Below, one piece after another: positions 2,945-63,928 of a DNA stretch of 64,000 nucleotides (position 1 is its first letter; each line of letters opens with the position of its first letter). Position numbers and translations under genes: made by a program. Source of the stretch: Spirochaetota bacterium. Lineage in GTDB: Bacteria > Spirochaetota > Spirochaetia > SZUA-6. The notes beneath the pieces were generated by a model. That model was not told the DNA's origin. It saw nothing but the letters and a program-made list of their open reading frames with translations, and searched no databases. Location: positions 29,668-93,667 of the forward strand of contig JAADHF010000112.1 of assembly GCA_013151965.1 (NCBI GenBank), in the 5' to 3' direction.

Positions 2945-4304
<1,360 letters not shown>

Positions 4305-8308: not shown

Positions 8309-9013
8309 ATGTCCGACAGGAACCCTGTAAGTCTTTCCATAAAGGCGGTAAGGGAAAGGACCGTTCTTCGAAATGTTTATCTATGGATGGCTATCGGCCT
8401 TGCATTAACAGGGGTTGTAGCGCTCGGTTTTGCATCGACACCGCAGCTCGTATTAGCTCTCGTTAAAAACCCGATTCTCTTTTTCGGAATCATAATCGGT
8501 GAGCTTGCCCTTGTATTCTTCCTTTCCGCAAAAATAATGACATTAAGCCCCACTGCGGCGACATTAGGATTTGCCGCTTATGCCGTATTAAACGGTGTTA
8601 CGCTCTCGCTTATTTTTCTGGCATACACAGGAGCAAGTATCGCGTCCAGTCTTTTCATCACAGCGGGAACCTTTGCCGGCATGAGCATCTATGCCGTAAC
8701 GACAAAAAGGGACCTCTCGTCTTTGGGCCATTACCTTATAATGGGATTATGGGGGATAATTATAGCTTCCGTAGTAAATATGTTCTTAAAGAGCAGCGCC
8801 TTGTACTGGCTTCTTTCCTACGGCGGAGTCGCCCTTTTCCTGGGCCTTACGGCATACGACACACAGATGATTAAACGCTGGAGTGACGAACTCGGCAATT
8901 CCCCTTCCGAAGCTGATTTCTTAAGAATTTCTATTCTCGGTGCCTTGAAACTTTATCTTGATTTTATTAATTTATTCCTGTTCATACTTCGCATCTTCGG
9001 GAGAAGAAGGTAA
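8309..9013 (+). CDS. Bax-inhibitor-1/YccA-family membrane protein
   Basis: Seven predicted TM helices, a basic C-terminus and the BI-1 pattern (GVTLSLIFLAYTG, LGALKLYLDFINLFLFIL). The RBS AAGGAGG precedes the ATG. Confidence 0.8.
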   Translation: MSDRNPVSLSIKAVRERTVLRNVYLWMAIGLALTGVVALGFASTPQLVLALVKNPILFFGIIIGELALVFFLSAKIMTLSPTAATLGFAAYAVLNGVTLSLIFLAYTGASIASSLFITAGTFAGMSIYAVTTKRDLSSLGHYLIMGLWGIIIASVVNMFLKSSALYWLLSYGGVALFLGLTAYDTQMIKRWSDELGNSPSEADFLRISILGALKLYLDFINLFLFILRIFGRRR

Positions 9014-9052
9014 TTTCCCCGAATAAAAATTAAATCGTAAGAGGAGTAAAAA

Positions 9053-9241
9053 ATGAAGGTAAAGATTGATGAAGATCTGTGTACGGCATGTGGTCTATGC
9101 ACAGACAGTGTTCCCGAGGTTTTCGAGCTGGGTGATGAATTTGCAACGGTTATAAAGCCCGAAGTTCCGCCGGAGCATGAGGATGCCGTACGTGATGCGG
9201 CTGCCGATTGCCCCGTAGAATCGATTATAATAGAAGAGTAA
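9053..9241 (+). CDS. Small 4Fe-4S ferredoxin (single cluster)
   Basis: 62 aa, with CTACGLC...DCP (Cx2Cx2C...CP), typical of short [4Fe-4S] ferredoxins. Confidence 0.8.
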   Translation: MKVKIDEDLCTACGLCTDSVPEVFELGDEFATVIKPEVPPEHEDAVRDAAADCPVESIIIEE

Positions 9242-9249
9242 GATAAAAA

Positions 9250-9277
9250 CCTGGCCTGTACCGGCCGGGTTTTTTAT
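9250..9277 (+). terminator. Rho-independent terminator after the ferredoxin gene
   Basis: Stem CCTGGCC / GGCCGGG (7 bp, one G-U wobble), loop TGTACC, then T7. Confidence 0.5.
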
Positions 9278-9326
9278 TGTTTTAATTTTCTAAAAAATCA
9301 ATACACTGGGAAAAAGGGGGCTTATT

Positions 9327-10118
9327 ATGGAAGTAATCTTAACTGAAGACTATAATGAAATGAGTAAAATATCTGCCGGTGAAATTGCCAGACAGGTCAG
9401 AAAAAAGCCTAATTCGGTTATAGGCCTTGCTACAGGCAGTACTCCGCTCGGCACCTATAAAGAGCTCATCCGGCTTCATAAAGAGGAAGGGCTCGATTTT
9501 TCCAAGGTAATTACATTTAACCTGGATGAGTATCTCGGCCTTCCTCCGGCTCATAAGGAAAGTTATAACTTTTTTATGTGGGAAAATCTTTTTAAGCATA
9601 TAAATATAAACCCGGAAAATGTACATGTTCCGCAGGGAATGGTAGAAGATGCAGAGGAATTCTGTGAGTGGTACGAGAAAGAAATAGAAAAGGCCGGCGG
9701 CATAGACCTGCAGCTTTTAGGCATCGGGAGTGACGGACATATAGCATTTAACGAACCGGGATCATCCTTCGGAAGCCGGACCAGGGTTAAAACTCTGGAA
9801 GAACAGACTATCGAGGATAATTCCAGATTCTTTAACAGTATCGACGAGGTGCCCCACTTCGCAATCACCATGGGAGTGGGAACAATATTAGAAGCACGAA
9901 AAATCGTACTGGCTGCTAATGGTAAAAACAAGGCCCAGGTATGTGCCCGGTTTATAGAAGGACCGATTGATTCACAGATTACAGCTTCCGCTCTCCAGCT
10001 TCATCCTCATGCGGTTATAGTTCTGGATGAAGCTGCAAGCTCACAGCTTAAACGTAAAAAATACTACAACTGGATCCGGGACAACAAACACATGGTAAAA
10101 AAATATTTAGGCAGGTAG
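9327..10118 (+). CDS. nagB: Glucosamine-6-phosphate deaminase (short canonical form)
   Basis: VIGLATGSTP, FNLDEY and LLGIGSDGHIAFNEP are the NagB catalytic motifs. Length is 263 aa. Confidence 0.9.
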   Translation: MEVILTEDYNEMSKISAGEIARQVRKKPNSVIGLATGSTPLGTYKELIRLHKEEGLDFSKVITFNLDEYLGLPPAHKESYNFFMWENLFKHININPENVHVPQGMVEDAEEFCEWYEKEIEKAGGIDLQLLGIGSDGHIAFNEPGSSFGSRTRVKTLEEQTIEDNSRFFNSIDEVPHFAITMGVGTILEARKIVLAANGKNKAQVCARFIEGPIDSQITASALQLHPHAVIVLDEAASSQLKRKKYYNWIRDNKHMVKKYLGR

Positions 10119-47972: not shown

Positions 47973-50687
47973 ATGCCGGAAAAGAAAATTAAACTGCTGG
48001 ACCTAATACGCCTCTCCTTCATCATCTTTTTGATTTCGCTCGCCGCTGCAATAGCGGTATTCCAGGCCATAAGCTCCTACCATAGTTTTAACAGCAACAC
48101 CATAAAGGTTCGATCGGATTATATAAAAAAGCAGAAATGGTTAATTAAAAGGGAAGTGGACCATGTTGTCGAAATAATTAAATACGAAAAAGATAAAGTA
48201 AAAGCAGAAGCAAAACAGGAAGTTACACATAGAATTAACGAAGCTCTGGATATCGCTGAAGATATCTACCTTCGGTACACCGGCGAAAAGAAAGATGCCG
48301 AAATTAGAAAAATGATTGTGAATACATTAAAATCGATCGGTTTTGATGACAATAAGAACAGGTACTTTATAAAAGACGCAAACGGAGTTCCCATTTTAAA
48401 TATGAAACCGAAGTACAGAGGTTTAAAATATAAGAAAACGGGAAATGCAGAGGAAAGTGCTTTTAAAATATTCAAACCCTTTAACTGGTACATCGGTACA
48501 GCTGTTTCCCCGGCCGATATCCGAAAAAAAGCACAGGAACAGCTAAAAAAATATATCGGGAAAATCCGTTTCGGACCTGATAAAAACGGATACATTTTTG
48601 TTAATTCATACAATGGCGACTGCCTTGTTCTTAACACTCAGAAAGAACTGGAAGGCACCAATATCTGGAATATTACAGATACGAACGGTGTAAAGGTAGT
48701 ACAGGAGGAAAGAAAAGCCGCGGAAAAACCGGGCGGAGATTTTATCTATTATACGTGGAATAAACCGTCCACCCGGGAACCTTCTCCGAAAGTTTCTTTT
48801 ATAAGGGGAATCGATGACTGGAAATGGATTATAGGAGCAGGCGTATATCTCGATGATGTGGAAAAGAATATAACAGCAATGCACGACAAATTAAAAAATA
48901 AATTAAAGTATGATTTTCTGCGCATTGCAGTGATAACAGGTTTACTCATTTCGCTTTTTTTATTCTTATTCCATTTAATAAGCCGCAGGATACAGAGTGA
49001 TTTTTTTCTGTTTATCTCGTTCTTTAAGCAGGCTGCTGTTTCCGATAAGGAAATCGATCAGAGTAAAATAAAATATGACGAGTTTTCCCGAATGGCTGAT
49101 TATGCCAACAAGATGCTGAAAGATAAAATGAAGGTTTACCATGAATTAGTGGAGGAAAAAGAACAGTTAGCTGTCACTCTGCGGTCCATCGGTGATGCAG
49201 TAATTGTTTCCGGCATATCCGGCGGCATCATACTTATGAACAGGGTGGCGGAAAAATTAACCGGATGGGAGCAAAACGAAGCAGCAGGCAAACCGCTTGT
49301 AAATGTATTTAATATTATTAACGAATACTCGAGAAAACCGGCAGAGAACCCGGTAAAAAGAGTACTGAAAAACGGAAAGATTGCGAATCTTGCCAATCAT
49401 ACCGTTCTTATTGCAAAGAACGGAAAAGAATACTGTATAGAGGACAGTGCGGCACCTATACTGGATAGTAAAAACAATATCAGGGGAGTTGTCCTTGTAT
49501 TTCGCGATGTAACGGAAAAGTTAAAGAAGGAAAAAGAAATGTTAAAAGTAAAAAAATTAGAGTCCGTCGGGATTCTCGCCGGCGGAATCGCCCATGATTT
49601 TAACAATCTTCTAACTGCAATTTACGGCAATATTTCCCTTGCCAGAATAAACGTAAAACCTGCGGAAAAAGCTTATGAGTATCTTGAGATAGCAGAAGAA
49701 TCTCTCCAGAGAGCAACCAACCTGACCAAACAGCTTTTAACCTTCGCAAAAGGCGGAGAACCTGTATTGGGTGCCGTTAAAATAGAAAAAATAATCGGGA
49801 AAACCGCCAAATTCATCCTTACGGGCAGCAATGTAAAACTTAATCTTTATACGGAACCCGAATTATGGCAGGTAAAAGCAGACAAGGGACAAATAAGCCA
49901 GGTTATTTCCAATCTGGTGATAAATGCAAAACAGGCTATGCCGAACGGAGGGAATCTGTATATCGATACAAGTAACGCTGATATAGGCATAAAGAACAAT
50001 ATAAAAACAGTTTCGCCGGGACGATATGTAAAGATTACCATTAAAGACGAGGGGATTGGAATTCCTAAAAAAGATCTCGAACGGATATTTGATCCGTATT
50101 TCAGCACCAAAGAGTCCGGTTCCGGCCTGGGGCTTGCAACAGTGCACTCCATTATCCAGAAACATGACGGGTATATATATGTCGATTCGATTCTTAACAG
50201 GGGAACTACTTTTACAGTTTATCTTCCTGCTCTAACCCCGGAGGAGAAAGAGCAAAACCTCCCATATAAAGACAGGGAATCCGTTAAAAATAATAATTCC
50301 GCTAAAATACTTGTCGTGGACGATGAGGAGGAGATTAGAAAGGTAGCGGGCAAGATGCTTGAAATTATCGGGCATACGGTTGAATTTGCCGGAAACAGCA
50401 GAGAGGCTGTCAATAAGTATAAAAATGCTATGAAAACAGGCAGCGCTTTTGATATTGTAATAATGGATCTGACAATGCCGGGAGGATTGGGCGGCAGGGA
50501 AACGGCAAAAGAAATACTTAAAGCTAATCCTGATGCAAAAATAATAGTTTCCAGTGGTTATTCCACAGACCGGATTATGGGAAATTACAGGGAATTCGGA
50601 TTTATAGGAATGGTTGCAAAACCATACAGACTTATTGAAATGAAAAACGAAGTTCAGCGCGTTTTACAGATACGGAATAACGAATAA
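47973..50687 (+). CDS. Hybrid sensor kinase: periplasmic double-Cache domain, PAS, HisKA, HATPase, C-terminal REC
   Basis: Two TM helices flank a roughly 290-aa extracytoplasmic domain. The H-box is AHDFNNLL. The ATPase boxes are present. The REC domain has LVVDDEEE...IMDLTMPG. Confidence 0.85.
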   Translation: MPEKKIKLLDLIRLSFIIFLISLAAAIAVFQAISSYHSFNSNTIKVRSDYIKKQKWLIKREVDHVVEIIKYEKDKVKAEAKQEVTHRINEALDIAEDIYLRYTGEKKDAEIRKMIVNTLKSIGFDDNKNRYFIKDANGVPILNMKPKYRGLKYKKTGNAEESAFKIFKPFNWYIGTAVSPADIRKKAQEQLKKYIGKIRFGPDKNGYIFVNSYNGDCLVLNTQKELEGTNIWNITDTNGVKVVQEERKAAEKPGGDFIYYTWNKPSTREPSPKVSFIRGIDDWKWIIGAGVYLDDVEKNITAMHDKLKNKLKYDFLRIAVITGLLISLFLFLFHLISRRIQSDFFLFISFFKQAAVSDKEIDQSKIKYDEFSRMADYANKMLKDKMKVYHELVEEKEQLAVTLRSIGDAVIVSGISGGIILMNRVAEKLTGWEQNEAAGKPLVNVFNIINEYSRKPAENPVKRVLKNGKIANLANHTVLIAKNGKEYCIEDSAAPILDSKNNIRGVVLVFRDVTEKLKKEKEMLKVKKLESVGILAGGIAHDFNNLLTAIYGNISLARINVKPAEKAYEYLEIAEESLQRATNLTKQLLTFAKGGEPVLGAVKIEKIIGKTAKFILTGSNVKLNLYTEPELWQVKADKGQISQVISNLVINAKQAMPNGGNLYIDTSNADIGIKNNIKTVSPGRYVKITIKDEGIGIPKKDLERIFDPYFSTKESGSGLGLATVHSIIQKHDGYIYVDSILNRGTTFTVYLPALTPEEKEQNLPYKDRESVKNNNSAKILVVDDEEEIRKVAGKMLEIIGHTVEFAGNSREAVNKYKNAMKTGSAFDIVIMDLTMPGGLGGRETAKEILKANPDAKIIVSSGYSTDRIMGNYREFGFIGMVAKPYRLIEMKNEVQRVLQIRNNE

Positions 50688-50691
50688 AATA

Positions 50692-51276
50692 TTACCCTCC
50701 TGTTCCATGCACCCATTTAAAAACCATATAAGCAACTGTAACTGCAATACCCTTATCCATTAAATTCACAGGGATTCTAGCCCAAAAGGCAGCCTGCAGC
50801 ATCGATTTCAGTGCCGTAAACAGTCCTATCGTAAGGTAATCCATGCTGACTCCCGTAACCCCCCCGAAAACAAACGTAGCTATTATGGCACCGAGTACGG
50901 CATTAACAAGAACAACTATAAGAAAAGTTACAATTGCATCCGGTACCGTACTGAATCTGCCATTCTTTACCATAAGGGCGACAACAATTGCAGTTCCCGC
51001 TCCGACCAGGCCGAATGGATAAATAGTGCCCGGAAAACACTGAAGTACCTCGATAAAACCATTCGTCAACAGACCGACCATGATTCCCGGCACCAGCCCG
51101 AACAGGGCGGCTATAACTGCCGTACCTATAGAATCCATAAAAAGCGGAACTGACAGTATCATGATTATACTGCTTAATGCACCGTTTATTACGACTGCAA
51201 GTGCACAACTTAACAGGACAAACCACAGTGACTTTTCCAGTACAAGTTCAATTAAGCTATGCCCAACCCTTTTCAT
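50692..51276 (-). CDS. ECF-transporter S-component-like integral membrane protein (substrate unknown)
   Basis: Six TM helices and a glycine-rich small-residue pattern typical of ECF S components. The start at 51276 (MKRVGHSL) was chosen, but SD spacing is poor and the start is uncertain. Confidence 0.5.
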   Translation of the reverse strand: MKRVGHSLIELVLEKSLWFVLLSCALAVVINGALSSIIMILSVPLFMDSIGTAVIAALFGLVPGIMVGLLTNGFIEVLQCFPGTIYPFGLVGAGTAIVVALMVKNGRFSTVPDAIVTFLIVVLVNAVLGAIIATFVFGGVTGVSMDYLTIGLFTALKSMLQAAFWARIPVNLMDKGIAVTVAYMVFKWVHGTGG

Positions 51277-51473
51277 TTCTCCATAATCTCTACTATTATA
51301 ATAATCTCTAACTACTTTTTGTAAAGAAGTATTTTTTAAAATAAAAAAGATGCATATTTTTTTGTATACGGCCTGCTGGAAGAATATAAGCTTACATAGT
51401 AGAATAAACGTATGACAAAGCAAAACAGACTATTAAATAGTTAACACCTTAAGACAAGGAGAAATAAGTTATT

Positions 51474-52499
51474 ATGAGAACACTTAAACCGATGGCTGCC
51501 GTTATCATCTTTCTTGCCGCCGCAGCAGGCCTCTTTGCAACAGGTCAGCAGGAAAAGATACCGACAAAGGTTGTACTCTACACAAGCGTAGATAAAAAGG
51601 ATGCAAAAAAGATTCTCGACGCATTTACAGCAGATACAGGTATAACCGCTTCTTTTGTTTATCTTTCCTCCGGTCCTGCACTGACAAGAATTACAGCGGA
51701 AAAAAACAATCCGCAGATAGATGCGTGGATGGGAGCACCCAGAGAAAACCACATTATTGCCAGAGACAAGGATTTAACAATTCCCTACAAATCCGGTCCC
51801 TGGAAAAAACTCGATGCTAAATTTAAAGATCCCGACGGCTACTGGAGATCCTTTTATATGAACCCGGTAGCCTTCTGTGTAAACACCGCAGCTCTTAAAA
51901 AGGCAGGAGCCCCCATGCCGGCATCATGGGATGACCTTCTTAATCCCGTTTATAAGGGTCTTATACAGGCTCCGACGCCACAGTCCTTTGGGATGACCGC
52001 TTACAATATATTAGCAAGTCTTGTAACAATGCGCGGGGAAGACAAGGCTTTCGAATATATGGCAAAGCTCAATAAGAATATTCAGACCTATACTTCTTCC
52101 GGCACAGCGCCTTCCAAAGCCGTAGCAGCCGGCCGGTGTGCTGTCGGAATACAGTTTACTCCCGCGTTCTTCCGGTTCATCGACCAGGGTTATCCTCTTA
52201 AGGTCATATTTCCCAGAGAAGGCGTAGGTTTCGAAGCTCCGGCAGTATCCATTATAAAGGGTGCAAAGAACCTGGAAGCCGCAAAGATCCTTGCCGATTG
52301 GCTTGTTTCTGAAAAGGGACAGGATGTTTTATCCGAAAAAAAGACTCACTTCTACCCTGTTAACCCGGAGGCAAAACTGGGCAGTGGAATGCCTCCTTTC
52401 TCATCACTGAAGTTGATCAGTTATAATCCGGAATGGGCCGGAAAAAACAAAAACCGTCTTGTAACGCGCTGGGTAAATGAAGTCCTGCCGGCTAAGTAA
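51474..52499 (+). CDS. ABC transporter periplasmic substrate-binding protein (SBP family 1; iron(III)/thiamine-type)
   Basis: It has a signal peptide and a type-II SBP fold pattern. No partner permease or ATPase genes are adjacent. Confidence 0.7.
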   Translation: MRTLKPMAAVIIFLAAAAGLFATGQQEKIPTKVVLYTSVDKKDAKKILDAFTADTGITASFVYLSSGPALTRITAEKNNPQIDAWMGAPRENHIIARDKDLTIPYKSGPWKKLDAKFKDPDGYWRSFYMNPVAFCVNTAALKKAGAPMPASWDDLLNPVYKGLIQAPTPQSFGMTAYNILASLVTMRGEDKAFEYMAKLNKNIQTYTSSGTAPSKAVAAGRCAVGIQFTPAFFRFIDQGYPLKVIFPREGVGFEAPAVSIIKGAKNLEAAKILADWLVSEKGQDVLSEKKTHFYPVNPEAKLGSGMPPFSSLKLISYNPEWAGKNKNRLVTRWVNEVLPAK

Positions 52500-52554: not shown

Positions 52555-53796
52555 CTATTCGTATTTTTTTAAAAGCATAACGGAATTATGTCCTCCGAAA
52601 CCAAAGGAATTGGAGATTGCAGCTTTAATTGTTCCTTCATATCCTTTATTCGGAACGTAATCCAGATCACATTCAGGGTCCGGATTTTCCAGATTTATAG
52701 TCGGAGGGAAATACTGGTTCTTAATAGCAAGAGCTGTTATAACAGCTTCCAGTCCGCCGGCAGCTCCCAACAGGTGCCCTGTCATCGATTTGGTGGAGGA
52801 AACCTTAAGCTCCTTTGCATGATCTCCGAATACCGCCTTGATTGCCTTTGTTTCCGTAGGATCATTAATCGGCGTGGAAGTGCCGTGGGCATTGATATAA
52901 TCTATATCCTCAGGTTTTAATCCGCTTTTTTTAATGGCAAGTTCCATTGCCCTGACTGCGCCTTTTCCCTCGGGATGCGGTGCTGTAAGGTGATACGCAT
53001 CGCTTGTTATTCCTTCTCCTCCGAGTTCGGCATATATTTTTGCTCCTCTTTTTTTAGCATGTTCAAGTTCTTCGATAATAAGGATGCCCGCTCCCTCTGC
53101 AATTACAAAACCATCTCTGTCTTTATCAAAGGGTCTGCATGCCTTATCCGGAATATCATTGAATTTAGTACTGAGAGCCTGGAGAATGCAGAAACCCGCA
53201 ACTCCGATCGGAGTAATGGCAGCTTCCGACCCGCCTGCCACCATAATATCCGATTCACCGGATCTTATCCATCTGTACGCCTGCCCTATCGCATCCGTGC
53301 CGGAAGAACATGCACTGACAACCGTATAATTCGGACCCAGCGCCTGAATCTTTATAGCTATATTAGCCGGAGCGATATTGCTTATCATCTTCGGAACTGT
53401 AAGAGGGTGAATAGTCATCGGTCCTTTGTTGTACAAACGTTTAAACGCTGTCGTTAACGTTTCTATGCCGCCTATTCCGTTTCCAAGAATAATTCCGATT
53501 CTTTCAGGATCATATTCCCCGATTTTAAGACCTGCATCATCCATGCCCTCAAGCGCGGCCACCATGCCGTACAATGTAAACGAGTCCATTCTTCGTGCTT
53601 CACGTTTATCCAGATAATTTTCAGGCGAGAAATCCCTTATTTCACCTGCCACTTTACTTGTATAATCCGCGGTATCAAACTTTGTAATGTTTCCGATTCC
53701 GGACCTCGAGCTCTTAATGCTCTCCCATAGTTCTTTAACATTATTTCCTATGGGGCTTACTGCACCCAGTCCGGTTATTACTACTCTTCTTTCCAT
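52555..53796 (-). CDS. fabF: 3-oxoacyl-ACP synthase II
   Basis: VVITGLGAVSPIG and the active-site Cys context SACSSG identify FabF. The GHxxGAAG motif is present. Confidence 0.9.
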   Translation of the reverse strand: MERRVVITGLGAVSPIGNNVKELWESIKSSRSGIGNITKFDTADYTSKVAGEIRDFSPENYLDKREARRMDSFTLYGMVAALEGMDDAGLKIGEYDPERIGIILGNGIGGIETLTTAFKRLYNKGPMTIHPLTVPKMISNIAPANIAIKIQALGPNYTVVSACSSGTDAIGQAYRWIRSGESDIMVAGGSEAAITPIGVAGFCILQALSTKFNDIPDKACRPFDKDRDGFVIAEGAGILIIEELEHAKKRGAKIYAELGGEGITSDAYHLTAPHPEGKGAVRAMELAIKKSGLKPEDIDYINAHGTSTPINDPTETKAIKAVFGDHAKELKVSSTKSMTGHLLGAAGGLEAVITALAIKNQYFPPTINLENPDPECDLDYVPNKGYEGTIKAAISNSFGFGGHNSVMLLKKYE

Positions 53797-53807
53797 AATA
53801 TTCCTCC

Positions 53808-54548
53808 TTAAATTGCCATTCCCCCATCCACGATGAGTACCTGGCCTGTAATATATGATGCTCTGTCAGAGGCAAGAAAAACAACTGCAGATGCTATTTC
53901 CTCCGGCTGAGCTGTCCTTCCCAGAGGTATCTGTGCTTTTAAGGCCTCTCTTGCTTTTTCTCCGATTTTCTTAGTCATATCAGTCTCCACGAAACCGGGG
54001 GCAACTACATTAACCCGGACACCGCGTGATGCCACTTCTTTCGCAAGGCTTTTACTAAAACCGATAAGCCCGGCCTTGGAAGCGGAATAATTCGTCTGTC
54101 CGGCATTGCCGGTTATTCCCACGATAGATGAAATATTTACTATAACACCTGACCTCTGTTTTATCATTATACGGGCAAGCTGTCTGCATGTAAAAAATGC
54201 GGATCTTAAGTTAACGGAAAGCACTTCGTCCCAATCATCCGTTTTCATCCGGAAAATAAGACCATCCCGTGTAATACCGGCGTTATTTATCAGAATATCA
54301 ACCGTTCCCGCTTCCTTTATTATCACATCTATTACTTCCGCTATACTCTCTCCGGACACATCCCCCTCTTTCCAGTAAACAGAAGTACCTGCGGATTCCG
54401 CTATATTCTCCATTTCCTTTTGATGTTCGCCTCTGGAACGGGATATGTAATAAACCGCTGCACCTTCCTCTAACAGTTCCTTTACAATTGCAAGGCCTAT
54501 TCCCCTGGACCCTCCCGTTACAATGGCATTCTTACCTTTTAAAAGCAT
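53808..54548 (-). CDS. fabG: 3-oxoacyl-ACP reductase
   Basis: TGGSRGIG, NNAG and YSASKAG are present. The start was chosen at MLLKGKNAIVTGG. Confidence 0.88.
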   Translation of the reverse strand: MLLKGKNAIVTGGSRGIGLAIVKELLEEGAAVYYISRSRGEHQKEMENIAESAGTSVYWKEGDVSGESIAEVIDVIIKEAGTVDILINNAGITRDGLIFRMKTDDWDEVLSVNLRSAFFTCRQLARIMIKQRSGVIVNISSIVGITGNAGQTNYSASKAGLIGFSKSLAKEVASRGVRVNVVAPGFVETDMTKKIGEKAREALKAQIPLGRTAQPEEIASAVVFLASDRASYITGQVLIVDGGMAI

Positions 54549-54553
54549 ACTTT

Positions 54554-55492
54554 TTATCCCTCCAGAATCTGTTTTATCGCATCCACAGTCCCTAAAGGAG
54601 TGCATACGATCTCCCTGTTAAAGGAACGCCACAAGCCGGACAATACCTTTCCCGGGCCTACTTCATAAACCGTATCAAAACCGTCTCTTAAGATGCTCTC
54701 TTCCTCTGTAACCCATTTAACCGTAGATACAACCTGACGAATACAGTAATCCTTTGCTTCCCGGCCGCTTTTAATCCTGTCTCCGGATACATTCGCATAA
54801 ACCGCCTTAACAGGATCGGAATACTCGATTCCGGAAAGCAGCTCAGCCAGTCCCTTCCGCGCATCCTCTAAAAGCGGTGAATGAAAAGGACCGGATACTT
54901 TTAACCTGATAAACCGCCTTGCCCCTGCATCCTTAAAGGCATCTTCCGCCTTATTAAGCCCGTCGGCAGTGCCCGAAAGGACTACCTGTGTAGGACTCGA
55001 ATAATTTGCAAGATAGATTCTTTCATTTTCCAGCCCGCCTAAAACTTCTTTTGCTTTCTCAAACGAAAGCCCTACTACGGCAGCCATTCCCGCATTTCCG
55101 GAAGAAGAATCAAGACCCCTGCTCGCCTTTTCCATTAATTCGCCGCGGACCTTTACTATAACGAAAAGATCCTGCAGTTTTACGATACCGGCTTCGTACA
55201 GTGCGGAATGCTCTCCGAGACTAAAACCTGCAAAACCTTCCGCATTTACACCGTTCTCTTTTAAGACGGTACTTGCGGAAAGATTTGCCAGAGTAACGGC
55301 AATCTGTGTTTTATCCGTAGCTTTGAGTTCTTCCTCCGTTCCCTCAAAAAGCAGCTTTTTAAGATCCATCTTTGCACTTTCAGATGCAACTTCGAAAAGC
55401 TCCTTTACTTTACTGCTGTAATCCCATAAATCCTTTGCCATGCCGGGATACTGAGCCCCCTGTCCCGGAAAAAGAAACACCGTTTTTCCCAT
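54554..55492 (-). CDS. fabD: Malonyl-CoA:ACP transacylase
   Basis: FLFPGQGAQYPGM and the GFSLGEHSA nucleophile elbow are present. The start was chosen at MGKTVF. Confidence 0.88.
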   Translation of the reverse strand: MGKTVFLFPGQGAQYPGMAKDLWDYSSKVKELFEVASESAKMDLKKLLFEGTEEELKATDKTQIAVTLANLSASTVLKENGVNAEGFAGFSLGEHSALYEAGIVKLQDLFVIVKVRGELMEKASRGLDSSSGNAGMAAVVGLSFEKAKEVLGGLENERIYLANYSSPTQVVLSGTADGLNKAEDAFKDAGARRFIRLKVSGPFHSPLLEDARKGLAELLSGIEYSDPVKAVYANVSGDRIKSGREAKDYCIRQVVSTVKWVTEEESILRDGFDTVYEVGPGKVLSGLWRSFNREIVCTPLGTVDAIKQILEG

Positions 55493-55694
55493 AAAAACCC
55501 CCCATAAGGTTACTTTGCGGGAAATTAACACATTAATTCCCTGTTGTCAAGTTAGATTTATTATCCCGCCGGCATACTTATTATAAGAGCGCAACGGAAA
55601 AGATAAAAGCACACGGATAAAATATTATTACAAATATACTGGTATATAAAAGAATTCAAATTACAGCGATATATAAAAAAAGTAAGAAAATTAG

Positions 55695-55723
55695 TTCCAA
55701 TAATAAAAAAACCGGTGTATAAT
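55695..55723 (+). promoter_or_regulatory. Candidate promoter of the cyclase gene: TATAAT -10 at 55718-55723 with an upstream TG
   Basis: GTGTATAAT was read from the sequence 18 nt upstream of the ATG, with GGAG at 55731-55734. No clear -35 element was found. Confidence 0.2.
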
Positions 55724-55740
55724 TTTTTCGGAGTTTTAAT

Positions 55741-57312
55741 ATGAAAGTAAAAAAAGAAAATGTTCTCGAAGAATTGGTGAGGGCGGGCTCTCTGCTTTCA
55801 CGCGAACTGGAATTTAAGTCATTGATTTCCACTCTTGTCGACCAATCTCTGGATATCACAAAATCGGATATTTCATGTCTGTATATTTCGAAAAATCCTG
55901 ATATCCGAACCGGTTATTCTCTTATCCACAGAAGAGGCAAGTATCCGGTTCCGCAGGAACTTACAGCCGAAAGCACGATTGTCCGGTTTATCGCCGAAAG
56001 CTGTGAATCGGTAGTATTCCTTAAAAGAAGAGAACACATTTTTCAGGAAGTACTTCTTAACAATCAGATGGAAAGCGGCATTGCTCTTCCCATATTTACA
56101 CCGAAATTAAAACTGGGAATTCTTGTTCTTAATTCACAGGTGCCTTTTTTCTACAATAGAGAAAAATTTAAATTTCTGGATTCATATACAAAATTAGCCG
56201 GAGGAATGCTGCACAATTCTAAGATGATACAGGAAATAAGGGAATACCTTAAAAAAATAGAAGAACTAAAGCGTTATCAGGAGAGCATTTTCTCTTCCAT
56301 GACAAACCTTCTTATAGCAACAGATCCACAGGGAAAAATACGCTACTATAACAGAGCGGCGGAAGAAAAACTCGAATTACAGAAAGACGACACAGGTTCG
56401 GAATTAAAGGAGCTTTTCAGGGACAGGATTAACGAAACAATACTCGGAACCGTAGATGAAGCGGGCAAAACAAAAACTGAAAATCTGGGAATAGAAGGTA
56501 TCTATAAATCACAGAAGAGAGAAATGGATTTTTCGCTCAATATTGCCCCGCTCAAAGGCGCCCGGGGCAGATACCAGGGGTTGACGCTTCTCTTTACAGA
56601 CCAGACATACGAACGTGAACTGCAGCAGAAAATGAAAAAGGTGGTCGAAGAACGGAGGATTATAAAAGATATGTTTTCCAGGTACCTTTCGCAGGAGGTT
56701 GTCAAGCAGCTTATGGAATCGCCAGACCTTGTCAAGCCGGGGGGGGATAAAAAAGAGGCAACGATATTTTTTGCCGACATACGCGGATATACCTCATTCT
56801 CCGAAGGGAAAGACCCTGAATATATAATAAAAATCCTCAATGAATATTTCGGCGAAGCGGTTGAAATCGTTGTTAAACACAGAGGATACATAGATAAATT
56901 TATAGGTGATTGTATAATGGCTGCCTGGGGAGTTCCTATGCAGACTGCTGAAGAAGATGCTTATCAGGCGGTTTCATGTGCACTCGAGATCCAGGAACTG
57001 GTTGCTTCGGAGAAGAGAAGTTTTTTCAATGGAGAGGCTTCTAAACTAAAAGTCGGTATCGGAATGCATACAGGCCCTCTTGTAGCAGGTAATCTCGGCA
57101 GCAGCAGAAGGATGAACTATACGGTTATCGGGGATACGGTAAATGTGGCTGCAAGATTAGAGGGAGTTGCCGGGCCCGGAGAAGTCATTATAACGGAAAA
57201 TACAAGGCAGTTTATAGGCAGTAGATTCATCCTGGAACAGAGAAAACCGGTTAAAGTAAAGGGCAAAACAAAGCCCATACCGATTTACAGCGTTCTCAAA
57301 AAGGCCGTATAA
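55741..57312 (+). CDS. GAF/PAS-domain class-III adenylate/guanylate cyclase
   Basis: The C-terminal CHD domain has FADIRGYTSF and GDCIMAAWG. GAF-like and PAS-like regions lie upstream. Confidence 0.8.
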   Translation: MKVKKENVLEELVRAGSLLSRELEFKSLISTLVDQSLDITKSDISCLYISKNPDIRTGYSLIHRRGKYPVPQELTAESTIVRFIAESCESVVFLKRREHIFQEVLLNNQMESGIALPIFTPKLKLGILVLNSQVPFFYNREKFKFLDSYTKLAGGMLHNSKMIQEIREYLKKIEELKRYQESIFSSMTNLLIATDPQGKIRYYNRAAEEKLELQKDDTGSELKELFRDRINETILGTVDEAGKTKTENLGIEGIYKSQKREMDFSLNIAPLKGARGRYQGLTLLFTDQTYERELQQKMKKVVEERRIIKDMFSRYLSQEVVKQLMESPDLVKPGGDKKEATIFFADIRGYTSFSEGKDPEYIIKILNEYFGEAVEIVVKHRGYIDKFIGDCIMAAWGVPMQTAEEDAYQAVSCALEIQELVASEKRSFFNGEASKLKVGIGMHTGPLVAGNLGSSRRMNYTVIGDTVNVAARLEGVAGPGEVIITENTRQFIGSRFILEQRKPVKVKGKTKPIPIYSVLKKAV

Positions 57313-57354
57313 ACGGGTTTACACAATTTACAGACGGCATAGGAGGTACAGAAT

Positions 57355-59934
57355 ATGGAAAAGTATTTAAATATGGCTTCGGGCTTTATTCCGTTATGGG
57401 CAATAGGAATTATTTCGGCGTTAATACTCGGAGTTATAACAATTTTTATTATAATAGTCATATCAAGAAAGCGATTCAATAATCTGTTAAAACAGGTTAT
57501 GCAGCACCCGGAACTCTCTGAGAGTCTGATACTTAAGAGATACAGTTCCGCAAAGCTTTTACGAAGATCGAAATTAATAGAAAAATTCGCCCATAAAAAC
57601 GGTAATGAAATTATTGGTTATACAAAAATCGACGATCTCTGGCTTAAAAGGCTCATGGCAAAACGAAGAGAACAGGATTTTAAAAGAATTATGAACTATG
57701 CAAGAGCAAAGGGCATATTTACCTGTTTTATAGTAAGTCTTGATAATAAAAAACTTTCCTCGCTCTTTATGCGGATACTCAATGTTTCCGAAGGATTTCT
57801 GTCATTGCGGAAGCTTGCCCTTGCCGGAAACGGAGAAGATTTTAACGGGGAAAAGGCATTATTGCTTTTTAAAGATAAACTCGATGAACTTCGCGAGATG
57901 ACCGGTTATCCCGAATGGCAGGCAAGATACTTTGCCGTTAAAATTCTCCTCCACGATAATGATGAAAAATCCGTCCGGGCAATCCGGGAATCATTTAAGG
58001 ATTCGTACCCGCTTATCAGGAGAACCGCTGCTTCCGAGTTTAAAACCGGAGAAAAGGAAAAACTGTACAGTACCTTATACAATCTCATATTAAATGATCC
58101 GTCTCCGGAGGTGCGTTCCGCAGCCTGGAAAAGAATTCAGAACGATTTTAAGGATCTTTACATACTGAAATACGAAAAACTTAAGGGCTCACAGCTTCTT
58201 CATGCATTGGAAGTTTTACAGCCCTCATCAAAAAACGATGAAAATACTGCGCTTAATATGCTCAGGGATAAGAATCCTGAAATAAGCTTTTATGCCGCTC
58301 AATTTTTAAAAAGAGCGGGAAGCTTAAACCGCTTATTGATAGAGACCGACATGGGTGATATGGACCTTGTGGAGAGAAATCTTGAACTCTTAAAGAAAGC
58401 CGTGGAGGTACACGAAATCTCCTTTCTATCTTACATAAAATCCGCAGACAAACCGGCACCTCTCTATATCGGGGCGAAGATACTTGCAGATGCTGGTCCG
58501 CGTGACTTTATAACAGAATTAGCCCGCAAGATTTTTGAACTGCCGGATAATGGCCCCGAATACTTTACCGTTTACGATGCGGTACTCGATGCCGTTCGGA
58601 ACAGGGGAACCGATAAGGCCCTTTTCCTTATGCATGAAGAATTAAAAAAACGGCAGAATAATCATGAAAGGTTAATCAGAATTTTAAACCGGATTCCTGC
58701 AAGAGCTGATTTTATTTTTATCGATACCCTGTTTTCACTTTTAGAGAATCCCCGGTTTAAAGAACATCAATCTCTGCGCAGAGTTTTCGGTACGATAGCA
58801 GCAGATACATATATCGACAGACTCATGGAAATTATAAGAGGAGGCAGGGAAAAATATCCTCACAAGGTCCGCATTGAAGCGCTGAAAATACTGGGGGAGA
58901 CAGGAAAAACCGGCTGTCTTCAGATTATACTAGAAAACCTTCCTGTACTGCCCCTTGACGAAGCTAAAGCTTTTACAAAGACCCTGCACGAATATTCGGG
59001 TGAAAATTTTAACAGAAAAGCGGCAGAACTTCTGGATAATGTCGACTCCACAATAAGAGCATCCCTGATAGCCGCTCTCCCTGCAACGGGCAGCAAAGAG
59101 TTTATAAAGGAAATCAGAAATTCTTTAAATGATTCCGATCCCGATGTCAGAATAGCATGTGCATGGGCGCTTGCGGATTTTGGTGATTACAGATCGCTAA
59201 ACCAGGCATTAGACATGCTTCGCGATCCGGTAGAAAGAGTGCGGGAGGAGGCAGCACGTGTAATCGGTTCTGTGGGGCAGAAAGAGGCTGTTTCCGGACT
59301 AAAAAAAATCCTTACGGATAAAAATGAAGTTCTATCCGTAAAGGAATCTGCCGTTAACGGGCTCGCACGCTCCTCTTCGCTTGAATCCATAAATATACTC
59401 ATCGATGCCGTCGAATCCGATAAAAGCCTTCGTGATCCGGTTATCCGGGCATTATCCTTTAAAAGGAAAGAAAAAGAGATTAAAAGTCTCATCGAACATT
59501 TTAAAGATGCCGGTCCCGAATTAAAGGATATTATAACGGAGACATTTAAAAAAATGGGTGAAACGATAGAGGCTCCTCTTTCGGAATTGATGCGGCAGGA
59601 TATTGCATCTCTGCATCAATATATTGTGGAAATACTTGAAAAAACAGGCTATGTGGATGCCGAAATTCGAAAACTTGCCAATCGTGATGTAAATGTACGT
59701 AAAAGGGCTGCTTCATTTCTCTCGTTAGTGGGATCGCTTTCCGCTTTCAGAGGTATTGTCCTTGCAAGCAGAGATCCTAATATCGAGGTACGTGTAGAAG
59801 TTGTAAAAGCACTCGAAAAACTGGAAACAGAGGACGGAGAGAAGATACTTAATTCCCTAAAAGATGATCCTGATAAAAAAGTGCGTACATATACATTATG
59901 GGCAATGGAGAGGCTTAAAGCCAAATCATTATAA
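57355..59934 (+). CDS. Membrane-anchored HEAT-repeat (PBS-lyase-type) protein
   Basis: There is an N-terminal TM helix. Repeated xPxVRxxAxxALG motifs follow (PEVRSAAWKRI, DPDVRIACAWALADFG, ERVREEAARVIGSVG, KKVRTYTLWAM). Confidence 0.65.
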   Translation: MEKYLNMASGFIPLWAIGIISALILGVITIFIIIVISRKRFNNLLKQVMQHPELSESLILKRYSSAKLLRRSKLIEKFAHKNGNEIIGYTKIDDLWLKRLMAKRREQDFKRIMNYARAKGIFTCFIVSLDNKKLSSLFMRILNVSEGFLSLRKLALAGNGEDFNGEKALLLFKDKLDELREMTGYPEWQARYFAVKILLHDNDEKSVRAIRESFKDSYPLIRRTAASEFKTGEKEKLYSTLYNLILNDPSPEVRSAAWKRIQNDFKDLYILKYEKLKGSQLLHALEVLQPSSKNDENTALNMLRDKNPEISFYAAQFLKRAGSLNRLLIETDMGDMDLVERNLELLKKAVEVHEISFLSYIKSADKPAPLYIGAKILADAGPRDFITELARKIFELPDNGPEYFTVYDAVLDAVRNRGTDKALFLMHEELKKRQNNHERLIRILNRIPARADFIFIDTLFSLLENPRFKEHQSLRRVFGTIAADTYIDRLMEIIRGGREKYPHKVRIEALKILGETGKTGCLQIILENLPVLPLDEAKAFTKTLHEYSGENFNRKAAELLDNVDSTIRASLIAALPATGSKEFIKEIRNSLNDSDPDVRIACAWALADFGDYRSLNQALDMLRDPVERVREEAARVIGSVGQKEAVSGLKKILTDKNEVLSVKESAVNGLARSSSLESINILIDAVESDKSLRDPVIRALSFKRKEKEIKSLIEHFKDAGPELKDIITETFKKMGETIEAPLSELMRQDIASLHQYIVEILEKTGYVDAEIRKLANRDVNVRKRAASFLSLVGSLSAFRGIVLASRDPNIEVRVEVVKALEKLETEDGEKILNSLKDDPDKKVRTYTLWAMERLKAKSL

Positions 59935-60043
59935 ATCAGCCGGTGTCATAATACACTATAATTATCAATAAGCTATCTGCGCGCTATTGACCTATTGGAT
60001 TGATGGTATTACAATAGCCTTCAAAATTTTCGGAGGTTAAAAT

Positions 60044-61027
60044 ATGAGAGCTGTAATAAAATCGATTGGTGCCTACGCACCTCCCAGACGGGTAAGTAAT
60101 GATGAATTTGCGAAAATAGTTGATACTACCGATGAATGGATAGTCTCCCACACAGGAATAAGATTTCGACATATAGCTGCCGATGATCAGGCGGCTTCCG
60201 ATATGGCAATCGAAGCAGGTAAAATTGCAGTTGAAAGATCCGGAATAGCTCCGGAAGATATAGATCTGGTAATCGTTTCTTCCGCCTCCAGCGATTATCT
60301 TGGTTTTCCCGCCACTGCATGTATTGTCCAGAATACGCTGGGTTTAAAACACGCAGGGGCAATGGATCTCCTGGCAGGCTGTACCGGATTTATCTACGGT
60401 CTCGAAACAGCAAAAAACTTTATAATATCCGGGTCTGCAAAGGCAGTTCTCGTAATAGGGGCGGAGATACTTACCCGCATAATGAACTGGAGCGACAGAA
60501 ACACATGTGTTCTCTTCGGCGACGGAGCCGGAGCAGCTGTCGTAACGGCATCGGATGACGATGACCGCGGAATTATCGATTCTATTTTAAGAGCTGACGG
60601 ATCCGGAGCGGAACTCCTCGAAAGGCCTGCAGGCGGAACCAGAAAACCCTTTAAACCGGGCGAAACCGATCCTTCCGAATTATGCCTTAGAATGGACGGC
60701 GGAAAAGTATATACATTTGCTGTCCGTGTAATAGTAGTGACGATTAAAGCTCTGCTGGAGCAGAATAATTTGACAATAGACGATATTAAATACATAGTTC
60801 CGCACCAGGCAAACAGCAGAATAATAGAAGCGGCATCAAAGAGGTCCAGAATACCATTGGAAAAGTTTTATCTTAACATACAGGAATACGCCAATACCTC
60901 TGCCGCATCGATTCCTCTGGCACTTAATGAAATGACAGAGAAAAACCTCCTTAAAAAGGGTGATAAAATCATTACCGTCGGATTCGGTGCGGGGCTTACG
61001 TACGGGGCTAATCTTATAGTCTGGTAA
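60044..61027 (+). CDS. fabH: 3-oxoacyl-ACP synthase III
   Basis: The catalytic triad contexts GCTGFIYGL, HQAN and GFGAGLTYGA are present. Confidence 0.9.
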   Translation: MRAVIKSIGAYAPPRRVSNDEFAKIVDTTDEWIVSHTGIRFRHIAADDQAASDMAIEAGKIAVERSGIAPEDIDLVIVSSASSDYLGFPATACIVQNTLGLKHAGAMDLLAGCTGFIYGLETAKNFIISGSAKAVLVIGAEILTRIMNWSDRNTCVLFGDGAGAAVVTASDDDDRGIIDSILRADGSGAELLERPAGGTRKPFKPGETDPSELCLRMDGGKVYTFAVRVIVVTIKALLEQNNLTIDDIKYIVPHQANSRIIEAASKRSRIPLEKFYLNIQEYANTSAASIPLALNEMTEKNLLKKGDKIITVGFGAGLTYGANLIVW

Positions 61028-61046: not shown

Positions 61047-62033
61047 CTATTCGTCTAAAAAACATGCGGAGAAATGACCGGGACTTACCTCCCGCATACC
61101 GGGTTTTTTCTTACTGCACTTAAGCATTGCGCGCAGACACCGCGGATGAAAATGACAGCCGGAAGGCGGCTCCATCGCACTGGGTATCTCGCCTTTCGGC
61201 ATCTCTTCTATTCTGCGTCTCTTTGGGTCGGGCACAGGTACAGCAGCAAGCAATGCCTTTGTATACGGGTGGTGCGGATTGCCGAAAAGTTCATCTTTAG
61301 TACCTATTTCGACAATTCTCCCGAGATACATAATTGCCACACGGTCGCATAGGTATTTGGCAGTTGCAAGATCATGAGTAATAAACAGATATGTAAGATT
61401 AAATTCAGCCTTAAGCTTTTTCATTAATTCAAGGATAAGTGCTCTGACAGAGACATCCGCCATTGCTATCGGTTCATCTGCGACAATAAAATCCGGCGAT
61501 GTAATAAGGGCGCGGGCCAGTACAACTCTCTGACTCTGACCGCCGGAGAGCTGGTGAGGGTATTTTCTGTAAAGGAAAGATGCAGGGGTTAACCCTATTT
61601 TTTCCATTAAATCCAGAACCTTCTCTTTCCGTTCTCCTTTTGTACCCATATTGTGTATTTTTAAGGGATGTTCGATAGCTTCTCCCACACTCATTCTGGG
61701 GCTTAAAGAAGAGTTGGGGTCCTGAAAAACAATCTGAATCTTGGAGCGGAGAGCTTCCATCTCCTTTCTGCGTATGGAAATCATATCCTTTCCGCGGTAA
61801 TAGACACTGCCTCCGGTAGGTTCGAGCAGCCTTAAGATAAGTCTCCCTGTCGTAGATTTACCCGATCCGCTTTCGCCTGCAAGCCCTAAAACCTCACCCT
61901 CCCTGATACTGAAAGAGACGTCATCTACGGCATGGATGAAATTCCTCTTTCTGCCCGCAAGCAGAACATCCAGAATGTTTTTTTCCACAGGGAAGTTCTT
62001 GGTCAGATTTGTTACTTTAAGTAATTCAGGCAT
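61047..62033 (-). CDS. Oligopeptide/dipeptide ABC transporter ATP-binding protein (OppF/DppF-like)
   Basis: Walker A is GESGSGKST, the signature motif is LSGGQSQR, and a C-terminal oligopeptide-ABC extension is present. Confidence 0.88.
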   Translation of the reverse strand: MPELLKVTNLTKNFPVEKNILDVLLAGRKRNFIHAVDDVSFSIREGEVLGLAGESGSGKSTTGRLILRLLEPTGGSVYYRGKDMISIRRKEMEALRSKIQIVFQDPNSSLSPRMSVGEAIEHPLKIHNMGTKGERKEKVLDLMEKIGLTPASFLYRKYPHQLSGGQSQRVVLARALITSPDFIVADEPIAMADVSVRALILELMKKLKAEFNLTYLFITHDLATAKYLCDRVAIMYLGRIVEIGTKDELFGNPHHPYTKALLAAVPVPDPKRRRIEEMPKGEIPSAMEPPSGCHFHPRCLRAMLKCSKKKPGMREVSPGHFSACFLDE

Positions 62034-62052
62034 CTTTAATTATTCCTTATCC

Positions 62053-63012
62053 TTACTCGTAGAGCCGGCATGCAATCTTCCTGCCTTTATACATCCTTAC
62101 TTCAGGTACTTCCTTTTTACATATATCCATCACTCTGGGACAGCGCGGAGCAAAACGGCAGCCGTCAGGCGGATTAACCAGGTCAGGAGGATTGCCGGGC
62201 ATTGTGATTAACTCTTTCTGTTCAAGTTCGATATTCGGAATACAATTTATCAAGCCGAAGGTGTACGGATGCAGAGGATCGCTGAAGATATTATCCGCAG
62301 ATCCAATCTCCATTATTCTGCCGCCGTACATTACGGCAACCCTGTCGGCTATTTCCGCCACAAGCCCCAGGTTATGCGTGATAAGGATAATCGTAAGGTT
62401 AAACCTTTTCCTTAATCTGTTTAATAAATCTATAAATCCGGCTTCTACAATAACATCGAGTGATGTTGTCGGTTCATCGGCAACGAGTATATCGGGCTGC
62501 ATTATCAGCCCCAGGCCTATCATTATCCTCTGTCTCATCCCCCCGGATAACTTGTGCGGATACTCATGCATGCGTTCCTTATCTATTCCGAGATCCTCAA
62601 GAATATTTTCCGACATTCTGATCGCTTCTTCCTGTTTAATTTCCGGTTTGTGGTAATGAATTGTCTCTAAAAACTGATCCTTTACTTTAAACAGGGGGTT
62701 AAGTGAAGTCAGAGGATTCTGAAATACCATTGCTATATTCTGTCCGCGGAAATTTAACATCTCGCTGCCGGACATCTTAAGTACGTCTTTCCCTTTGTAT
62801 AGAATCTCGCCTCCGGAGACCTTTCCGGGAGGCCTGATAAGCTTTAACAACGACAGACCGAGTGTCGACTTTCCGCAGCCGGATTCGCCGACAAGGCCGA
62901 GAACCTCTCCCCTGTTTAAGATGAGACTTACATCTTCGACTGCGTGTACCGTTCCGATACTGATCGGATAATCTATATAGAGGTTATTAATCTCCAATAT
63001 CGGTTTATTCAA
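62053..63012 (-). CDS. Oligopeptide/dipeptide ABC transporter ATP-binding protein (OppD/DppD-like)
   Basis: Walker A is GESGCGKST, the signature motif is LSGGMRQR, and a C-terminal Cys-containing tail is present. Confidence 0.88.
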
Positions 63013-63013
63013 A

Positions 63014-63928
63014 CTACCGCTCCAGCAGCCTGGGATTTAATATTTCCGACAATCCTTCTCCAAGCATGGTAAAACCCAGAGCAAGAGTCATAATCATTAA
63101 GCCGGGAAAAGTTATCATCCACCAGATTCCGGAGGGAAGATATTTTTTACCCATTGCAAGGTCCATGCCCCAGTCCGGAATGCCGGCGGGAAGTCCCAAT
63201 CCGATATACGACAGGGCTGCTTCCGTCATAATTGCATCAGCTATATTCAGAGAAAATACTACAACAACCGTTGCTATGACATTGGGAAAGATATATTTTC
63301 TCAGTATAACCGAACGTTTGGCGCCGATAGCACGGGCCGCTTCCACATACAGTTCTTCTTTTATCGATAATGTCTGCCCGCGTACAAGCCTGAAATAGGT
63401 AGGTATATACACAACGGCAACGGCAAGTGTAATGTTTACGACTCCGGGACCGAGCATTGCTGCAAAGGCAATTGCAAGGATAAGCCCCGGGAAAGAATAA
63501 ATAGAATCCATAATCAGTGAAAATATTCTGTCGAATACCCCGCCTATGAATCCTGATATTAAACCAAGGGGAATTCCGATTAAGGAAGAAAGGATTGCAG
63601 CCGTGAAAGCAACACCTAAAATCGTTCTCGATCCGTATATCATTCTGGAAAGAATATCCCTGCTTAAATTGTCCGTTCCGAACGGGTGGCCCGGACCCGG
63701 AGCCATAAGCTGAGGCCCTGTATTCTGATCCAGCGGATTGTACGGTGCTAATGTGCCGGGGAAAAGAGCCATATAACTTATAAAAAGTATGATAACGGCA
63801 CCAAAAATCAGTATCCACCATTCCACACCGTATTTCTTATTGGCATTTATTAACCATTCAAAAACTCTCCCCATCCTTCCGGAAGCGGAATATCCGGAAG
63901 CCTCTATATTTTTTGATTTCTGTGTCAA
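63014..63928 (-). CDS. Oligopeptide/dipeptide ABC transporter permease (OppC/DppC-like)
   Basis: Six TM helices and the EAA-like loop (YVEAARAIGAKR) are present. There is an apparent TTG start with AGGAG 8 nt upstream. Confidence 0.85.
   Translation of the reverse strand: MTQKSKNIEASGYSASGRMGRVFEWLINANKKYGVEWWILIFGAVIILFISYMALFPGTLAPYNPLDQNTGPQLMAPGPGHPFGTDNLSRDILSRMIYGSRTILGVAFTAAILSSLIGIPLGLISGFIGGVFDRIFSLIMDSIYSFPGLILAIAFAAMLGPGVVNITLAVAVVYIPTYFRLVRGQTLSIKEELYVEAARAIGAKRSVILRKYIFPNVIATVVVVFSLNIADAIMTEAALSYIGLGLPAGIPDWGMDLAMGKKYLPSGIWWMITFPGLMIMTLALGFTMLGEGLSEILNPRLLER

Follow-up and report, generated by a model that had tools for sequence, protein, structure and literature searches.

The locus

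The subject of this report is a locus in a 64-kb stretch of DNA (64,000 nucleotides of contig JAADHF010000112.1, hereafter the window) from a Spirochaetota bacterium, the source being a metagenome-assembled genome (MAG). Between positions 52555 and 61027 of the window, the fatty-acid synthesis genes fabF, fabG and fabD lie on the minus strand and fabH lies on the plus strand, and between fabD and fabH stand a gene for a nucleotide cyclase and a gene for a HEAT-repeat protein. An initial annotation, made from the sequence alone, had described these six genes and proposed either that the cyclase and its neighbour link cyclic-nucleotide (cNMP) signalling to membrane-lipid synthesis or that the arrangement reflects an ancestral inversion. 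Our map of open reading frames (ORFs) and profile searches confirm all six genes on the strands given there.

The minus-strand unit starts with fabD (54554-55492, 312 aa), which begins MGKTVFLFPGQGAQ and encodes malonyl-CoA:ACP transacylase (ACP, acyl carrier protein). Its product scores 104 bits, above threshold, with the Pfam family Acyl_transf_1, and it bears GQGAQ and GFSLGE, the latter with the nucleophile Ser. The TIGR00128 score, obtained with an over-long ORF, is 245.1 bits against a cut-off of 260.9, and this is by far the best family; the gene also has its conserved place upstream of fabG. The score is a little short of the equivalog cut-off; in all other respects the protein looks like FabD. 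Next comes fabG (53808-54548, minus strand), a 3-oxoacyl-ACP reductase of 246 aa with 323.9 bits in TIGR01830 (cut-off 297.75) and with the cofactor and catalytic motifs of the SDR family, TGGSRGIG, NNAG and YSASK. The ORF itself extends to 54605, and both the alignments and the orthologues, which are 246 aa long, place the start at Met20. The last gene of the unit, fabF (52555-53796, minus strand, 413 aa), encodes beta-ketoacyl-ACP synthase II; it reaches 627 bits in the equivalog family TIGR03150 against a cut-off of 494, and the motifs of its Cys-His-His triad (Cys163, His304 and His341) are all present as ACSSG, HGTST and GHLLG. Because only 5 nt separate fabD from fabG and only 11 nt separate fabG from fabF, the three genes very probably form one operon. 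The 11-nt gap and the lack of acpP in its usual slot had both been pointed out before, and the ORF map, the profiles and our ACP scans agree.

On the plus strand, fabH (60044-61027, 327 aa) encodes beta-ketoacyl-ACP synthase III, with 400.9 bits in NF006829 (cut-off 249) and 376.9 bits in TIGR00747 (cut-off 292). It contains CTGF (Cys113), HQAN (His254) and ANTSAAS, which we take, by analogy with E. coli FabH, to carry the Cys-His-Asn triad. The start codons of fabD and fabH are 4,551 bp apart, in agreement with the distance of about 4.5 kb in the initial annotation. The gene diverges from fabD and converges with oppF (61047-62033, minus strand), a gene of an opp-type ABC transporter operon.

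The cyclase gene (55741-57312) and the HEAT gene (57355-59934) are both on the plus strand, co-directional with fabH and divergent from fabD, as had been stated; 42 nt separate them, and a further 109 nt separate the HEAT gene from fabH. The AT-rich region from which the two directions diverge (55493-55740) has 248 bp and 29.4% GC, compared with 43% in the window. At 41-42% GC, the cyclase and HEAT genes are near the mean of the window, and therefore give no hint of a recent foreign origin.

The fab layout in related genomes

The canonical cluster of type II fatty-acid synthesis, plsX-fabH-fabD-fabG-acpP-fabF, is that of E. coli and Bacillus. A FabH scan of species-representative genomes gave us eight spirochaete loci and eight distant ones for comparison (loci are numbered L001, L002 and so on), and the Firmicutes loci L009-L016 are indeed colinear, fabH-fabD-fabG-(acpP)-fabF. 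The window has the same four enzymes with their catalytic motifs intact, and its fabD-fabG-fabF genes are still contiguous and tightly packed. It differs from the canonical cluster in that fabH, fabD, fabG, acpP and fabF are not found in colinear order on one strand: fabH points the opposite way from fabD, the whole 64 kb lacks acpP, no plsX was seen beside fabH, and fabD and fabH have a signalling module of 4.3 kb between them. In this phylum, a split fab cluster is nothing unusual. In Brachyspira, fabG-acpP-fabF are together, fabD is elsewhere, and fabH-plsX is next to grd genes (PMC2897892). Brachyspira thus keeps acpP between fabG and fabF, whereas in the lineage of the window fabD-fabG-fabF have stayed contiguous and acpP is gone from the cluster.

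Two motif scans and an ACP hidden Markov model (HMM), applied to all six-frame ORFs, revealed no ACP-like ORF in the window. The HMM was built from the ACPs of control loci, and the window and all 106 fetched loci were scanned. With the same motif and HMM tests, acpP was detected in five Firmicutes controls and in none of the roughly 100 spirochaete loci. The initial annotation had recommended that acpP be located elsewhere; among the window and the 106 loci, it turned up in the Firmicutes controls only. The whole lineage probably keeps acpP elsewhere in the genome, and its departure from the fab cluster is old.

The window shares its layout with its relatives. In L003, L005, L006, L007 and L021, as in the window, fabF-fabG-fabD lie on one strand, fabH diverges from them and acpP is missing; L004, where the fab halves are about 9 kb apart, shows the divergent layout as far as its sequence reaches. 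FabH identity goes down to about 60% among the spirochaete loci with this layout. Since an inverted fabH and a missing acpP are shared by every spirochaete locus that we recovered with both halves, both features are old in the group. The ancestral inversion, one of the two possibilities raised at the outset, is thereby supported: compared with the colinear Firmicutes order, fabH is flipped in all related spirochaete fab loci that we recovered.

It is the content of the slot between fabD and fabH that varies. In L003 the slot measures 226 bp and holds no gene; the pair in the window fills a slot that is empty there, so it was correct to call the fab cluster interrupted. L005 (8665-9942) and L007 (8616-9863) have in this place a protein of about 415-425 aa with an N-terminal hydrophobic segment or membrane anchor. 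In L004 (8373-9782) and L006 (8315-9826) the slot holds a different, unrelated protein of about 470-503 aa. Neither of these proteins has a Pfam hit, and in all four loci they are co-directional with fabH. The cyclase-HEAT pair occupies the slot only in the window, L001, L002, L017/L018 and L021/L031.

Between the window and L021, FabH is 70% and the HEAT protein 48% identical. In neighbour-joining (NJ) trees, whether built from the concatenated Fab proteins or from FabH only, L003 and L021 are sisters, and together they are sister to the window clade. Because L003, which lacks the pair, is sister to L021, which has it, a single entry of the pair in their common ancestor, with a later loss or move in L003, is the simplest scenario. 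In the cyclase-HEAT tree, L019 branches within the slot-bearing group, and its pair is flanked by genes for a solute-binding protein and a 5'-nucleotidase; hence the pair appears able to leave the slot again.

The opp operon convergent with fabH (61047-63928) is syntenic in every cyclase-HEAT-fabH locus (L001, L017, L021) and not in L003. Given that this synteny is also missing there, the L003 lineage seems to have been rearranged on both sides of fabH. We also considered the possibility that L003 and L019 represent the same rearranged genome, as each has an aldo-keto-reductase/Fe-S gene nearby, and rejected it, since the two proteins are only 24% identical.

A separate observation concerns L008 (OY764342.2), from a more distant member of the Spirochaetia, where none of fabD, fabG and fabF is found within 10 kb of the solitary fabH. 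Divergent from this fabH (at 10001) is a minus-strand gene (8522-9823) whose product of 433 aa combines an anti-sigma-kinase-like HATPase_c_2 domain with a cNMP-binding one.

The cyclase and HEAT genes as a module

We scanned metagenomes with an alignment of the HEAT family and examined 80 of the 249 contigs found; pooled with the other loci, and with duplicates removed, these gave a set of 83. Where at least 600 nt were available upstream of the HEAT gene (69 loci), the preceding gene was a full cyclase in 64, a GAF-only gene in 4 and neither in 1. A GAF-containing gene thus precedes HEAT in 68 of 69 loci. The sole exception is a full-length HEAT member of 860 aa behind ABC-transporter permease genes (L067, 1-2358; L068, 3304-5327). 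The association with fabH is of another order altogether: among the 60 loci whose sequence continues for 1,150 nt or more beyond HEAT, fabH follows in six, which correspond to five distinct loci of about 59, all in the window clade. No third partner recurs among the flanking ORFs of 80 loci, the largest family (9/80) consisting of opp ATPases from the clade to which the window belongs.

The loci with HEAT orthologues that we inspected individually have the cyclase directly upstream on the same strand, except for the most divergent one, L024. There, a free-standing GAF protein of 148 aa (3037-3483), 29% identical to the N-terminus of the cyclase (E 4e-19), overlaps the HEAT start by 4 nt. Similar upstream genes of about 150-175 aa, with no PAS or cyclase domain, are found in L035 (573-1166), L042 (177-686) and L043 (1730-2233). 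Since a free-standing GAF protein takes the place of the cyclase in these four loci, GAF is the constant companion of HEAT, which points to GAF-HEAT as the module's conserved core.

The pair is located away from fab genes in two named genomes, those of the cultured Oceanispirochaeta crateris (CP036150.1) and of Spirochaetaceae bacterium (CP070696.1). In O. crateris the cyclase is QEN09931.1 / WP_246157023.1, and the HEAT gene next to it encodes 871 aa. The same is true of L019, L022, L023 and the contig P0007, and L024 has the GAF-only version. The window pair conforms to the general pattern, a gene of about 860 codons for an anchored HEAT protein that directly follows a GAF-containing gene in the same orientation. 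The cyclase-HEAT pair is therefore a self-contained unit, widespread in spirochaetes and inherited together. Our literature searches found no description of such a pair.

The two proteins

The cyclase (NOY09575.1) is a soluble protein of 523 aa whose catalytic domain scores 111 bits in Guanylate_cyc (PF00211; threshold 21.9). Solved class III cyclases match this domain at E-values down to 3e-45, and the best relatives are Cya2, CyaB and CyaC. The structures of the class IIIb enzymes Spirulina CyaC (1wc0), P. aeruginosa CyaB (3r5g) and Synechocystis Cya2 (2w01) are homologous to it at E 1e-25 to 1e-39, and the window cyclase has, like them, both metal Asp residues, the Asn, the Arg and the Lys plus Thr/Ser specificity pair. 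In 32 orthologues, the metal-binding D346 and D390, the transition-state residues N468 and R472, and K386 never vary; at position 461, 26 of the 32 have Thr and the other six Ser. A Lys/Thr pair is typical of ATP-specific class IIIb adenylate cyclases. Judging from these residues, the protein most likely functions as a homodimer and is active as an adenylate cyclase. Its orthologues of about 523 aa number more than 120 and share 56-77% identity, and several come from named Spirochaetaceae, Alkalispirochaetaceae or Oceanispirochaeta.

What distinguishes the window cyclase from CyaC, CyaB and Cya2 is its sensor, a GAF-PAS tandem, and the dedicated HEAT partner gene that almost always follows. 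The initial annotation had attributed GAF and PAS domains to it. PAS is found by Pfam directly, and residues 189-287 of the AlphaFold 2 (AF2) model have the PAS fold; for GAF, the profile match in the window cyclase is weak (GAF_3, E 0.006, 17 bits, under the cut-off of 27), and it is the fold that establishes the domain. Residues 1-170 are modelled with pLDDT 82-94, and Foldseek matches them to 3ci6 with a target TM of 0.80-0.81 and an rmsd of 3.0 over about 165 columns. Moreover, many cyclase orthologues have precomputed GAF, GAF_2 or GAF_3 matches, and the GAF-only homologue of L024 scores 29 bits. The monomer model is poor at residues 297-400 (pLDDT < 50), and we did not interpret the structure of the catalytic domain.

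Among the best fold matches to the GAF-PAS tandem is the N-terminal GAF-PAS part of E. coli DhaR in complex with DhaK/DhaL (4lry, 4lrx, 4lrz). On this precedent, a GAF-PAS sensor can respond to a partner protein instead of a small ligand. The comparison goes no further than analogy: the output of DhaR, unlike that of the window cyclase, is an AAA+ transcription factor, the partners are unrelated, and the TM values are low (0.33-0.36).

The HEAT protein (NOY09576.1, 859 aa) contains five stretches of HEAT_2 (135.6 bits; threshold 27.7), and its AF2 model (pLDDT 88) consists of paired helices from about residue 40 to residue 859, as expected of a HEAT alpha-solenoid. It had been called a membrane HEAT-repeat protein of 859 aa; the length and the repeats stand, and the membrane part comes down to one N-terminal hydrophobic anchor at about residues 14-37, in a lone hydrophobic segment that covers about residues 5-37. 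The anchor, which is followed by a basic RKR motif, is kept in 16 of 16 aligned orthologues. The protein is thus probably tethered by one N-terminal helix to the cytoplasmic face of the membrane.

The HEAT alpha-solenoid is common to eukaryotic scaffolds (PP2A PR65/A, karyopherin-beta2, CAND1, SF3B1) and to the bacterial PBS-lyase-type proteins NblB and CpcE, and a role as a protein-binding scaffold is likely here too. There is no specific kinship with any of them: structure searches returned only generic HEAT scaffolds, with TM at most 0.35 and identities of 11-15%. What sets the window protein apart is its N-terminal membrane anchor, an N-terminal half specific to its family, and a gene that is obligately paired with one encoding a GAF domain. 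In a profile search of 1.8 billion representative proteins, about 100 full-length (about 830-900 aa) members at 50% identity came to light, and the matches ranking under these are only generic giant HEAT proteins. The number of members recovered depends on the method, being 16 with a word-indexed search, about 100 with the profile search and 249 contigs with the metagenome scan; this fast-evolving solenoid is badly under-sampled by k-mer prefilters.

Promoters and intergenic regions

A promoter-like element for fabH, TTGACC-17-TACAAT (59987-60015, plus strand), lies in the HEAT-fabH spacer, 28 nt upstream of the fabH start codon. It was called by the consensus promoter scan, and the pattern TATTGACC-N17-TA[C/G/A]AAT is common to the window, L001, L002, L017 and L021 despite their divergent spacers. 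The same pattern precedes fabH in L003, with no cyclase-HEAT pair upstream. Because the element is kept with or without the pair, fabH is most likely transcribed on its own. The counts of the promoter and terminator scans were not above shuffled expectation (22 vs 17.6; 13 vs 9.3), and only the fabH element gains weight, through its conservation across species.

In the spacer between fabD and the cyclase gene, the consensus scan called no site. A putative fabD promoter, TTGACA-17-TAATTT, can be read by eye on the minus strand near fabD, and it is conserved in the alignment with L001 and L021. Between its -35-like TTGACA and -10-like TAATTT is an inverted repeat, GGAAATTAA-N4-TTAATTCCC (55520-55541), identical in L001 and not obviously kept in L021, which could be an operator or could be chance. 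On the other side, a TATAAT is found about 20 nt upstream of the cyclase start. None of the intergenic regions had an Rfam match at E <= 0.1.

Interpretation and alternatives

In our opinion, the locus is in all probability the result of a lineage-specific relocation, by which a pre-existing signalling module entered a permissive spacer of an anciently split fab cluster, with no regulatory link between the two. An ordinary set of type II fatty-acid synthesis genes was split long ago into fabD-fabG-fabF and fabH, which diverge and probably form two transcription units, and the spacer between fabD and fabH would tolerate insertions, with a cargo that differs by lineage. The cyclase-HEAT module would have reached this slot in the ancestor of the window clade. 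The HEAT scaffold may bind the GAF(-PAS) region of the cyclase and so localise or gate where and when cAMP is made, and fabH would be driven by its own promoter directly upstream of the start codon. If fabH has its own promoter and the module is self-contained, then the adjacency to fab would therefore be history and not a regulatory circuit.

Certain observations weigh against such a relocation without consequences. The trees on which the order of events is based are simple NJ trees on few taxa. The terminator scan found no terminator-like site or hairpin after HEAT, and therefore read-through from HEAT into fabH is possible. The layout has been kept across substantial divergence, so there could be weak selection for linkage. 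Finally, L008 presents a second, independent coincidence of cNMP signalling and fabH.

A bolder proposal would concern the pair itself: the HEAT protein could be an accessory or localising subunit of a new kind, docked on the GAF domain of the cyclase in an obligate complex, and in the window clade its position in the slot might also let the state of the membrane feed into cAMP signalling. We put this forward tentatively, and would not ourselves expect all of it to hold.

The initial annotation raised the idea that cNMP signalling is coupled to lipid synthesis. In such a scheme, the pair would sense a membrane or metabolic cue and tune fatty-acid synthesis, either by co-transcription with fabH or by cAMP control of the fabD and fabH promoters. 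The idea is not without attraction, as the HEAT protein is membrane-anchored, the pair reads in the direction of fabH with no terminator-like site in between, and the layout is kept from the window to L021 at just 48% HEAT identity; one may add the palindrome that overlaps the putative fabD promoter and the cNMP-binding protein divergent from fabH in L008. We nevertheless regard it as unlikely. Nothing in the comparison of some 100 related loci points to control of lipid synthesis by the pair. Linkage to fab is seen in 5 distinct loci of about 59, all of which are explained by one evolutionary event, and the pair is mostly found away from fab. L003 has lost the linkage and L019 lacks it, with the fab layout undisturbed, fabH has a conserved promoter-like element of its own, and there is no cAMP-receptor gene in the locus. 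The proposal was to be abandoned, in its own terms, if related genomes had the same arrangement with the pair elsewhere; relatives such as L003 do have this fab layout and lack the pair in it, and the pair is found in other contexts.

Still less credible to us is that the pair was at home between fabD and fabH from the start, all other contexts being secondary relocations. It is true that the slot arrangement spans the deepest split of the clade formed by the window and L021. However, in the more distant L004-L007 the layout is likewise divergent and the slot holds unrelated genes, the most divergent pair loci are in unrelated and mutually different contexts (L022-L024, L025, L106 and dozens of metagenome loci), and the genomes with the pair in the slot are, as the present data suggest, a single derived clade. 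An artefact of assembly or binning, that is, a chimeric contig joining fab to signalling genes, might come to mind with a MAG, yet it is practically out of the question, because independent assemblies from different samples (L001, L002/L026, L017/L018, L021/L031) have the same order, including the downstream opp operon, at 48-93% protein identity.

Genes upstream of fabF

The region upstream of fabF (47973-52499) contains a gene for a 904-aa hybrid histidine kinase (dCache, PAS, HisKA, HATPase and receiver domains) and two transport-related genes, one for a CD3073-type ECF transporter S component (50692-51423, minus strand) and one for a phnS2-like solute-binding protein (51474-52499). None of the three flanks fabF in L003 or L021. 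Those two loci have a phosphate acetyl/butyryl-transferase gene upstream of fabF, adjacent to it in L003 and with a chemoreceptor (MCP) gene in between in L021.

Implications

For fatty-acid synthesis the arrangement matters little, as a split fab cluster without acpP is normal in these spirochaetes, and annotators should not infer a cAMP-lipid circuit from adjacency alone. A useful by-product of the analysis is the definition, in the Spirochaetia, of a widely conserved and tightly linked pair of a GAF-PAS adenylate cyclase and a membrane-anchored HEAT scaffold. The pairing is open to experiment in the cultured Oceanispirochaeta crateris. Should the HEAT protein indeed act on the cyclase as we tentatively propose, a bacterial class III cyclase would turn out to have an accessory or localising subunit of a novel kind, in a module conserved across the Spirochaetia.

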